Shown here piece after piece: positions 49,673-54,311 of a stretch of DNA of 64,000 nt. A program made the translations under genes and the position numbers. The notes beneath the pieces are model-generated. The model had not been told where the DNA came from and did no database searches. It worked only from the letters and a program-made list of their open reading frames with translations. Every line of letters begins with the position of its first letter. The stretch's first letter is position 1. This stretch comes from Sedimentisphaerales bacterium (GTDB lineage: Bacteria; Planctomycetota; Phycisphaerae; Sedimentisphaerales; SM23-30): NCBI GenBank assembly GCA_963663965.2, contig CAXXFK010000028.1, forward strand, positions 512,001 through 576,000, given 5' to 3'.

Positions 49673-49700
49673 TTGACTATTATTACGAAAATGTTATCTT
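49673..49700 (+). promoter_or_regulatory. Sigma70-type promoter of the S10 operon (proximal)
   Basis: TTGACT-16 nt-TATCTT with extended TGn and AT-rich UP-like region. Confidence 0.6.
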
Positions 49701-49825
49701 TACGATTCTGCTAAATTTAGCGGACAGTACTTTACAGTATTAATAGTCAAGGTCAGTTACCCGTAAAGAGCGGTCAATTGGCCTGTTTTATTTAAGTAAC
49801 CCGCACTCAGATTAGGAGCTTCTCA

Positions 49826-52743: not shown

Positions 52744-53010
52744 ATGAGCCGTTCAACGAAAAAAGGACCTTTTGTAGATGAGAACGTCTACACCAAGGTA
52801 ATGAAACAGGAAGAAGCCGGAAGAAAAGAACCGATAAAGACCTGGGCACGGCGTTGCACGATCGTTCCAGAATTTGTCGGCCACACCTTTATGGTGCACA
52901 ATGGCAAAATGTTTTTCAAAGTTTATGTGACAGAAGACATGGTAGGCCACAAGCTGGGCGAGTTCTCTCCGACTCGCGGATTTAAAGGACATAGCGGCGG
53001 CAAGAAATAG
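52744..53010 (+). CDS. rpsS: 30S ribosomal protein S19
   Basis: 'KKGPFVD', '[13 protein letters not shown]'. Confidence 0.98.
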
Positions 53011-53042
53011 CAATCATCTTATTGCAATGAACAGGTACAGGC

Positions 53043-53591
53043 ATGTTAAGTAACGAAAAATTAAATAGTAAATTACAAGACGCGAAGCTAAGTATGGAAG
53101 AGCTTGGCGAGCGTCTGAGCAACAGCCGGATCAAAGATCCCGTTTCTGCCGTTAAAAACTGGCAGCGTGGCTTGATGAAGCCATCGCCTCGGCAGGCCGA
53201 TATCGACCAGCTGGCCCAGGCGCTGGATTGTGAAAGCACCGATTTGATGTGCTGGAAAGCCTCGCACATGTATGCTCCGATCGCGCCGCGAAAATCGCGT
53301 CTGGTGGTTGATCTGGTTCGGAATTATCCTGTTCAGGAAGCCATGGATTTGTTGAAATTTGCTAACAAGCGCGCCGCGGTTTTTGTTGAGCAGGTTTTGC
53401 GAAGCGCCGTACAGAACGCGGTTGAGCAGAGTGAAGTCGATCCTGACCAGCTGTATATTTCAGAGGCACGGGTAGATGAAGGCGGCGTCCGCCGCGGCAC
53501 CCGCCGCTGGCGTCCGAAAGATCGCGGGCGCGCCGTTTCGTGGACCCGGCTAGCCAGCCATATCCATATAACCGTAGATCTCATACAATAG
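53043..53591 (+). CDS. rplV: 50S ribosomal protein L22 with ~70-aa N-terminal HTH-like extension
   Basis: C-terminal 'APRKSRLVVDLVR..VLRSAVQNA..VDEG..RGRA..SHI' and position between rpsS and rpsC. Confidence 0.95.
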   Translation: MLSNEKLNSKLQDAKLSMEELGERLSNSRIKDPVSAVKNWQRGLMKPSPRQADIDQLAQALDCESTDLMCWKASHMYAPIAPRKSRLVVDLVRNYPVQEAMDLLKFANKRAAVFVEQVLRSAVQNAVEQSEVDPDQLYISEARVDEGGVRRGTRRWRPKDRGRAVSWTRLASHIHITVDLIQ

Positions 53592-53621: not shown

Positions 53622-54311
53622 ATGGGTCAGAAAGTATCGCCAATTGGATTTAGAACAGGTATCACCCTCGGCTGGAAAAGCCGCTGGTTCGCGCCCAAAG
53701 CAGCATATGGCACGTTCCTGGTGGAAGATCAGAAAATCCGCAAATACCTGGATAACCGTTTAAATCGAGTTCCGCCCTACGCGGCGCTTGCCAATGTTGA
53801 AATCGAGCGTACCCGTGATGAGGTTCGCGTGACGTTACATACCGCTCGTCCGGGTATCGTCATTGGTCCGAAGGGCCAGGAAATCGATAAACTTCGCGAA
53901 GAGCTGGAAGACCTGATCGATCGCAAGGTTACAGTTAATGTCACGGAGATAAAAACGCCGGAATTGAATGCCCAGCTGGTTGGCGAAGCGATCGCCGAAC
54001 AGTTAAAACGGCGCGCCGCCTTCCGTCGCGTGATGAAACAGAGTTGCGAATCCGCGATGGCCGCTGGCGCCAAGGGCGTTAAGATCATTTGTTCCGGCCG
54101 TCTGGGCGGCGCCGAACTGGCTCGCAGCGAAACCCAGATTCTGGGCTCTATTCCGTTGCAGACACTGGATGCGGATGTCGATTATGGACTTTCCATCGCC
54201 GTATGTACCTATGGCACCATAGGAATCAAGGTATGGATCTATCGCGGCATGTTTGGCGAGCAGATTGAAGTCAAGGAAACAGGTCGTAAAGGCGGCCGTT
54301 CAACTAACTAG
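53622..54311 (+). CDS. rpsC: 30S ribosomal protein S3
   Basis: 'MGQKVSPIGFR', 'ARPGIVIG', 'SGRLGGAE'. Confidence 0.98.
   Translation: MGQKVSPIGFRTGITLGWKSRWFAPKAAYGTFLVEDQKIRKYLDNRLNRVPPYAALANVEIERTRDEVRVTLHTARPGIVIGPKGQEIDKLREELEDLIDRKVTVNVTEIKTPELNAQLVGEAIAEQLKRRAAFRRVMKQSCESAMAAGAKGVKIICSGRLGGAELARSETQILGSIPLQTLDADVDYGLSIAVCTYGTIGIKVWIYRGMFGEQIEVKETGRKGGRSTN

Follow-up and report, generated by a model that had tools for sequence, protein, structure and literature searches.

Why would a protein that lines the ribosome's exit tunnel for peptides carry a domain of the transcription-factor type? The window analysed here, a 64,000-nucleotide stretch of contig CAXXFK010000028.1 from a Sedimentisphaerales bacterium, holds between rpsS and rpsC an rplV gene whose product is 182 residues long. 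The first-pass annotation had read this product as ribosomal protein uL22 preceded by an N-terminal extension, a reading with which the open reading frame, Pfam and NCBIfam agree, and the strings that it had picked out as marks of an XRE/Cro-like helix-turn-helix (HTH), namely KLSMEELGERL, SAVKNWQRG and IDQLAQALDCESTDL, are present in the translation. Whole folded domains are seldom gained by core bacterial ribosomal proteins. Here one is fixed on uL22, which lines the tunnel and contributes to the site of nascent-chain enzymes, and it is conserved in an entire order of Planctomycetota.

Is the rest of the protein an ordinary uL22? The gene lies 32 nt from rpsS and 30 nt from rpsC in a standard S10/spc cluster, in the order uS10, uL3, uL4, uL23, uL2, uS19, rplV, uS3, uL16, uL29, uS17, uL14, uL24, uL5 (Table 1). 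Pfam Ribosomal_L22 (PF00237) matches residues 73-178 over nearly its whole profile (E 3e-28, 98.5 bits, cut-off 28), and NCBIfam TIGR01044 (rplV_bact) scores 88.4 bits, above its cut-off of 73.65. In the AlphaFold model the core forms an alpha/beta globular fold with a long beta-hairpin (strands 137-149 and 155-180). By Foldseek the core superimposes on the uL22 of solved ribosomes with a target-normalised TM score of at least 0.9 and an rmsd of 1.3-1.5 A, and the model of the whole protein matches the uL22 chains of solved 70S ribosomes alone. A whole-genome scan of the source genome, whose assembly is 94.6% complete, matched PF00237 once, and rplV is thus the only uL22 gene found there.

Table 1. 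Features of the rplV locus, numbered from the first nucleotide of the window
Feature	Position	Strand	Detail or evidence
rplV, HTH-uL22 fusion gene	53043..53591	+	182 aa + stop; ATG start, TAG stop
N-terminal domain of predicted cro/C1 (XRE) fold, residues 1-68	53043..53246	+	AlphaFold, Foldseek, VIA-align; HTH_3/HTH_31 matches of orthologues
Codon M69, fusion junction and ancestral uL22 start-codon position	53247..53249	+	alignment with canonical uL22
M76, second Met of the junction	53268-53270	+	sequence
uL22 core including the tunnel beta-hairpin, residues 73-182	53259..53588	+	Pfam, NCBIfam, Foldseek
Two AGG triplets (-10..-8, -4..-2), Shine-Dalgarno-like, ahead of the M1 start	53033..53041	+	sequence
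rpsS (uS19), upstream neighbour	52744..53010	+	PF00203, E 1.3e-36
rpsC (uS3), downstream neighbour	53622..54311	+	PF00189 and KH_2

What is the extension? AlphaFold predicts the whole protein with a pLDDT of 94.9 and a pTM of 0.86 (38-row alignment) and the domain by itself with a pLDDT of 90.9 (26-row alignment), placing helices at residues 4-14, 18-24, 33-41 and 51-60 and a short turn at 65-67; the pTM hints that HTH domain and core hold a fixed arrangement. Foldseek aligns the domain model with P22 c2, C.AhdI, SinR and DdrO at TM scores of 0.70-0.73 (0.62-0.73 when lambda cI is included) and assigns these domain matches a probability of 1.0, yet their E-values are only 0.02-0.3. Against representative structures, VIA-align aligned 59-69 of 72 residues and returned 21 chains at Z of at least 8, with a top Z of 9.9, and its first 39 rows are cro/C1-type domains as judged by their titles. 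The N-domains of HppE and MPnS lead this list (Z 9.8-9.9), controller proteins, DdrO, ImmR, SinR and P22 c2 stand at Z 8.6-9.1, and lower down come a chain of the Toxoplasma mitoribosome large subunit (Z 7.1), RodZ (2wus, Z 6.8) and a chain from a human 80S entry (Z 6.7). Helical models can commonly give Z values under about 8-13; what carries the fold call is therefore that these structural lists and the profile matches concur.

Those matches come mainly from relatives. The first 72 residues of the rplV product reach HTH_3 with an E-value of 0.025 and 15 bits, under the cut-off of 23, while at E<=0.01 HTH_3 is matched by 21 and HTH_31 by 23 of the 38 orthologues. The best match, at 3.6e-10, belongs to an orthologue (L020, genome G017) that scores 40.2 bits against HTH_3, above the cut-off. 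The XRE signature ..NW[EQ]xG...P.P...[DE][IV]..LA..L.V is found in the uL22 domain, and a profile of the domain searched against the PDB recovers ShTniQ chains (E 6.8e-5), the HTH protein 7t5u (8e-4) and SinR (0.01-0.03). The best ESM Atlas scores (0.75-0.76), which we treat as leads only, fall on generic HTH clusters and on a 182-aa Planctomycetota L22 cluster. With orthologue matches and fold prediction concurring, the proposed XRE/Cro-like HTH domain is upheld and its XRE-like pattern exceeds chance, the HTH_3 score of the product itself lying below threshold; modelling and profiles together support a five-helix cro/C1 (XRE)-type domain in residues 1 to about 68, fused in frame to uL22.

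The domain departs from its superfamily at one point. A canonical XRE helix-turn-helix has a short turn between helices 2 and 3, and this connection (H2-H3) lies where repressors contact DNA. In the model it is enlarged to an eight-residue loop, residues 25-32, between helices 18-24 and 33-41. From reference position 25 to position 35 the rplV product counts 9 intervening residues; 18 orthologues have 11, five have 18-19 and one has 5, so that a loop of variable length takes the place of the classical tight turn. The connection thus measures 9-19 residues in 25 of 26 orthologues, loop insertions of 2-16 residues are tolerated among them, and the start of helix 3 varies as well. The canonical-looking exception is L020, with five residues; its 67-residue domain, with a canonical short turn, could either have kept the ancestral state or have secondarily lost the loop. 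The same long connection occurs in the N-domain of ShTniQ, from a type V-K CRISPR-associated transposon, whose match as best PDB hit of the profile extends over 50 residues. Unlike ShTniQ, the uL22 domain has no transposon context, and the likeness is confined to the HTH-like part; Pfam TniQ is absent from the 8 families matched by the 38 orthologues at E<=0.01.

Is the extension part of the translated protein? First noticed in this one gene, it recurs in 39 relatives of the order and in all seven genomes examined of a further family, f19. Stop-free matches to the full protein were found in 40 of 41 genomes, these being the source genome and its nearest relatives, and the genome that was missed is 70% complete. 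In the 39 matching relatives, which span the order's eight families, the match begins at query residue 1-25 and ends near 180. Among 38 aligned sequences M1, N39, W40 and P47 are invariant, and L2 (37 of 38 sequences), K6, L7, L21, P49, L57, L61 and W71 are conserved at 90% or more. We extracted 26 distinct orthologous genes. In 25 of these the frame opens just 0-14 codons before a conserved ATG-Leu start, while the start of the f19 gene was placed by hand at a GTG 10 codons in. In 22 of the 26 genes AGG, GGAG or GAGG occurs at -18..-4 relative to M1, and the gap from the rpsS stop to rplV is 19-168 nt in the 18 genes where it was measurable.

Selection on the domain was estimated by the Nei-Gojobori method from the five closest pairs. 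The domain comes out with a dN/dS of 0.12-0.23 and the core with one of 0.02-0.09, which indicates that the domain is under selection, though 3-6 times looser than that on the uL22 core. Pairwise identity matrices of domain and core correlate (r 0.59; 0 of 2000 permutations in a Mantel test), as expected under joint vertical descent. Together, these sequence comparisons show a fusion that is translated from M1, inherited vertically and held under purifying selection throughout the order and in one more family of Phycisphaerae.

Where was the domain joined? Canonical uL22 from 14 genomes of other families of the class begins M-[AP]-[WYF]-x-[AS]-x-[HW]-R, and M69 aligns with this start Met (MAWKATH..). 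Because canonical uL22 starts there, W71 corresponds to residue 3 of the ancestral protein and M69 stands at the ancestral start; judged from this alignment, the HTH domain is an addition directly before the old uL22 start codon. The annotation had held that the junction offers no Met with an obvious ribosome-binding site. Two Mets do exist, M69 and M76, both non-conserved; no AGG stands within 15 nt upstream of M69. Only three of 26 orthologues have Met in the M69 column, and an internal start therefore cannot be the general rule.

How widely is the fusion distributed? Within a sample of 151 genomes of the class, 20 of 20 genomes of the order, the source included, and 7 of 7 from f19 align from residue 1-13; one genome was unmatched, and in the remaining 123 the match begins at residue 35 or beyond. 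A domain-only query of 301 genomes of the phylum gave 12 matches at E<=0.01. Seven are strong and all come from the order, again including the source, three are weak and come from f19, and two are at chance level, one containing four stops and the other lying inside an 865-aa frame. In neither sample was the HTH extension seen outside the order and f19. Fourteen long open frames upstream of uL22 outside the order were considered and rejected, as they hold a Met at the canonical start and no upstream ML..NW. A search of genome contigs found 429 stretches that encode relatives, and the best 80 of the 429 all span residues 1 to about 178. Titles among these matches name Sedimentisphaerales, Phycisphaerae or Phycisphaerales, Planctomycetota, bins of 'uncultured Pirellulales' and one Candidatus Kuenenia MAG. 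The 'uncultured Pirellulales' labels (L065 and others) and the Candidatus Kuenenia stuttgartiensis label sit on HTH-uL22 of the Phycisphaerae type and look imprecise.

In a 23S rRNA tree of 10 genomes, families f19 and f15 are joined at support 100, and this pair is the sister group of the order (support 79). Family f15 is without the domain in the class sample; as it groups with f19, the domain would be dispensable in some lineages. To account for the pattern takes either a gain plus a loss or two separate gains. The common junction and the common loop insertion lead us to favour a single gain.

Does the domain exist on its own? A length-restricted search in which 8000 candidates were scored gave 4 short proteins, all of them frameshifted or truncated fusions. 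Among 1.84 billion representative proteins the domain profile matched 305 at E<=0.001. Matches consisting of a single stretch start at or near residue 1, and the three that were scanned with Pfam (P0129, P0130, P0178) all carry Ribosomal_L22; the six scanned multi-stretch matches are proteins with tandem generic HTH_3 repeats. Neither the 8000 scored candidates nor the scanned matches from the representatives include a stand-alone copy. Several of the tandem proteins (P0125, P0135, P0138, P0140, P0150), recovered through summed scores, consist of 7-12 HTH_3 domains in 525-1927 aa, and the longest, P0125 (1927 aa), additionally has HEAT repeats.

What could such a domain do on uL22? As the sole uL22 found in the source genome carries it, the domain would be a constitutive part of the 50S subunit, and every ribosome in the order probably bears an HTH domain near the peptide exit. 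Published structures suggest where it would lie. The proteins uL22, uL23, uL24 and uL29 are described as encircling the exit site (PMC5071890), and the globular part of uL22 is described as surface-exposed, forming with bL32 and rRNA a groove for the C-terminal helix of peptide deformylase (PDF) (bioRxiv 10.1101/2022.04.20.488877). In the C. acnes 70S ribosome, an N-terminal extension of uL22 is reported to anchor H2, H24, H46 and the tip of H19 (PMC10085706). From these surface, exit-ring and N-extension positions the domain is expected at the rRNA junction by the exit port. Its place would be on the solvent face, at the point of emergence of the uL22 N-terminus, beside 23S rRNA helices H2, H19, H24 and H46 and against or just above their junction, with the exit-port protein ring and the PDF-binding uL22/bL32 groove as neighbours.

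The reading that we prefer, though with confidence no better than evenly divided, is that the HTH domain is a lineage-specific surface module that contacts 23S rRNA and has a stabilising or assembly role. It would stabilise the junction or help to assemble it, and would remodel the surface next to the exit port. The fold would be used on RNA, in the manner of the cro/C1 domain of EDF1/Mbf1 on the small subunit, and not as a dimeric operator-binding repressor. EDF1/Mbf1 is a known case of a cro/C1-type HTH that works on the ribosome, where it is described as clamped between rRNA h33 and h16 (PMC7486125) in a factor that eukaryotes and archaea have and that bacteria are stated to lack, and the uL22 domain may work alike. 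EDF1/Mbf1 is, however, a separate and transiently recruited small-subunit factor, whereas the uL22 domain is a covalent part of a large-subunit protein. Nor is there specific sequence kinship: the aMBF1 family TIGR00270 gives L020 18 bits, where the cut-off is 110, and has no match in the rplV product. If it is on the ribosome, the domain alters the surface by the exit port in these organisms and is an example from nature of a ribonucleoprotein recruiting a cro/C1 fold.

The composition of the domain fits nucleic-acid contact. Several basic columns are conserved (K6 97%, K8 74%, R11 68%, K38 63%, R42 68%, K46 68%), and the net charge of the domain, which ranges from -3 to +6, is positive in 21 of 26 orthologues; both features, read from the alignment, are consistent with such a role. 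The domain of the rplV product itself has a net charge of 0 and lacks K8 and R11, which is weak for an electrostatic RNA binder. Across 6 fusion-bearing genomes, 4 fusion-free genomes and E. coli, no indel of at least 3 nt was exclusive to either group, and this comparison thus gives no sign of co-evolving rRNA. Also against the rRNA-module reading, the pace at which the domain evolves is about 3-6 times that of the core, and f15 manages without it. A complex prediction that paired the core (73-182) with the N-domain (1-72), run without controls, gave a score of 0.15 against a mark of 0.32.

The 23S alignment has oddities of its own. Both copies in genome G031 (L114, L118) are about 3170 nt long, and the copy aligned has a 282-nt insertion near E. 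coli position 1872 that none of the nine other aligned Phycisphaerae 23S sequences shares; it may be an intervening sequence or an intron. The 23S rRNA of f19 (L116, L117) is only about 2733 nt; compared with the order and with E. coli it is shortened in several places, near E. coli positions 271-292, 347-356, 1429-1454 and 1576-1582.

Could the partner at the exit port be a protein instead of rRNA? The annotation had proposed a nucleic-acid or protein docking site near the tunnel exit. That proposal fits the published position of the uL22 N-terminus (PMC10085706) and comes close to the reading that we prefer, but is conjecture. A protein-docking role is the chief rival of the rRNA module, and we consider it conceivable but rather unlikely that the ribosome-borne domain serves as a platform for a nascent-chain factor (for example PDF, MAP, trigger factor or SRP) or a factor specific to the lineage. 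The cro/C1 fold does serve protein contacts or structure elsewhere, as in RodZ with MreB and in the N-domains of HppE and MPnS, and ShTniQ, whose N-terminal part is the closest match by sequence in the PDB, likewise has a long H2-H3 loop there. The domain of the rplV product is uncharged, and uL22 itself is described as helping to build the PDF site (bioRxiv 10.1101/2022.04.20.488877). PDF, the one gene examined for co-variation with the fusion, speaks against this reading: PF01327 has a single match in 60 of 61 genomes of the class, fusion or not, with no obvious difference in length. No gene was seen to co-vary, and any partner is at this point a candidate.

A further possibility, which we think decidedly unlikely, is that the domain retains nucleic-acid binding beyond the ribosome, either as a reporter of assembly acting on DNA or mRNA or as a built-in tether to DNA, mRNA or an exit-port factor. 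The tether, if true, would be a bacterial and covalently integrated counterpart of the EDF1/Mbf1 idea.

The sequence upstream of rpsJ, the first gene of the cluster, contains elements of interest here. About 100 nt ahead of rpsJ stands a promoter-like site, TTGACT-16-TATCTT with a TG (49673-49700), and 7 nt after it an 18-bp palindrome, TCTGCTAAATTTAGCGGA, at 49707-49724. The gene upstream of the promoter-like site encodes an unrelated GxGYxYP/PA14 protein, for which reason 49673-49724 is probably the control region of the operon. In the rpsS-rplV spacer no inverted repeat was found at the settings used. Among 27 rpsJ-upstream regions (L130-L157), a set of overlapping 10-mers around GTTAGTGTAAGTTG and further ones, AGTTGGGCTG for example, are each repeated in 5-7; they are non-palindromic and might represent either a leader element under conservation or an upstream gene's end.

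Does free HTH-uL22 bind DNA or its own mRNA and repress the ribosomal protein operon, so coupling transcription to assembly? Feedback by free ribosomal proteins on expression is an established logic, and the fold and profile of the domain are those of operator-binding repressors: P22 c2, the 434 and lambda repressors, SinR, C.AhdI and DdrO share its five-helix fold (TM 0.70-0.73, Z 8-9). The palindrome begins 7 nt past the promoter-like site, and L020 retains the canonical short turn together with an HTH_3 match of 3.6e-10. We nevertheless judge moonlighting of this kind improbable. Unlike the XRE regulators, the uL22 domain has an enlarged H2-H3 turn (25 of 26 orthologues, with a variable start of helix 3), no recognisable dimerisation or oligomerisation module and no operator that we could find upstream of rpsJ, and it is fused to an essential ribosomal protein. 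No palindrome half-site is common upstream of rpsJ in 27 relatives, the best occurring in 3 of 27 and being AT-rich; the half-site of the source locus occurs at that locus alone among the 27 regions; and promoter-like sites show no enrichment, with 3 found where shuffles give 1.6 +/- 1.0. The DNA-level repressor proposed in the first-pass annotation thus finds no support in the half-site search, the turn or the search for a dimerisation module, although these tests are weak ones, since operators could co-evolve.

Might the domain instead do nothing? An HTH gene fused once to rplV could persist as a folded and functionally neutral appendage, and the faster evolution of the domain relative to the core, its absence from f15 and the tolerance of 2-16-residue loop insertions are what such a passenger would lead one to expect. 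Neutrality is contradicted by the dN/dS of 0.12-0.23, by the invariance of N39, W40 and P47, by the lack of any frameshifted or stop-bearing copy in 40 genomes and by the retention of the domain across eight families of the order, and we regard a passenger as very improbable. Least credible of all is a scheme of two products, with translation in this genome also or mainly from M69 to give a uL22 of normal length and the long form being minor or having another role: M69 aligns with the canonical start Met of the class, but Met is found in that column in 3 of 26 genes while M1-L2 is conserved, the 15 nt that precede M69 hold no AGG, purifying selection acts on the domain, and the rpsS-rplV spacer would grow to 236 nt.

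How does the preferred reading, an rRNA-contacting domain built into uL22, relate to known variants of this protein? The uL22 proteins of C. acnes and mycobacteria, chloroplast uL22c and the NCBIfam family NF008917 likewise carry extra sequence on a conserved uL22 core. Chloroplast uL22c is reported to have 89 extra residues, and chloroplast extensions are described as mostly extended and poorly resolved (PMC5071890); the C-terminal extension of M. smegmatis uL22 is described as disordered (PMC10085706). As far as these accounts go, the known extensions are tails or are unmodelled, whereas the extension here is predicted to be an autonomous folded domain of a transcription-factor superfamily. 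NF008917, an 'L22/unknown domain fusion protein', scores 59.4 bits against a cut-off of 526 on the rplV product and matches in the L22 part alone, at profile positions 11-107 of 311. A literature search, mostly at the level of titles and abstracts, found no published description of an HTH-uL22 fusion, although the HTH+L22 architecture was already visible through the Pfam labels precomputed in databases; NCBI names these proteins '50S ribosomal protein L22'. Extended uL22 proteins are familiar, and the new version added here bears a folded domain of the repressor type. The order Sedimentisphaerales has cultured members. Another lineage-specific extension of uL22, distinct from the HTH domain, occurs in family f12 (L159-L165), where the N-terminus is normal and 6 of 7 genes encode a K/R/A-rich C-terminal tail of about 20-40 residues.
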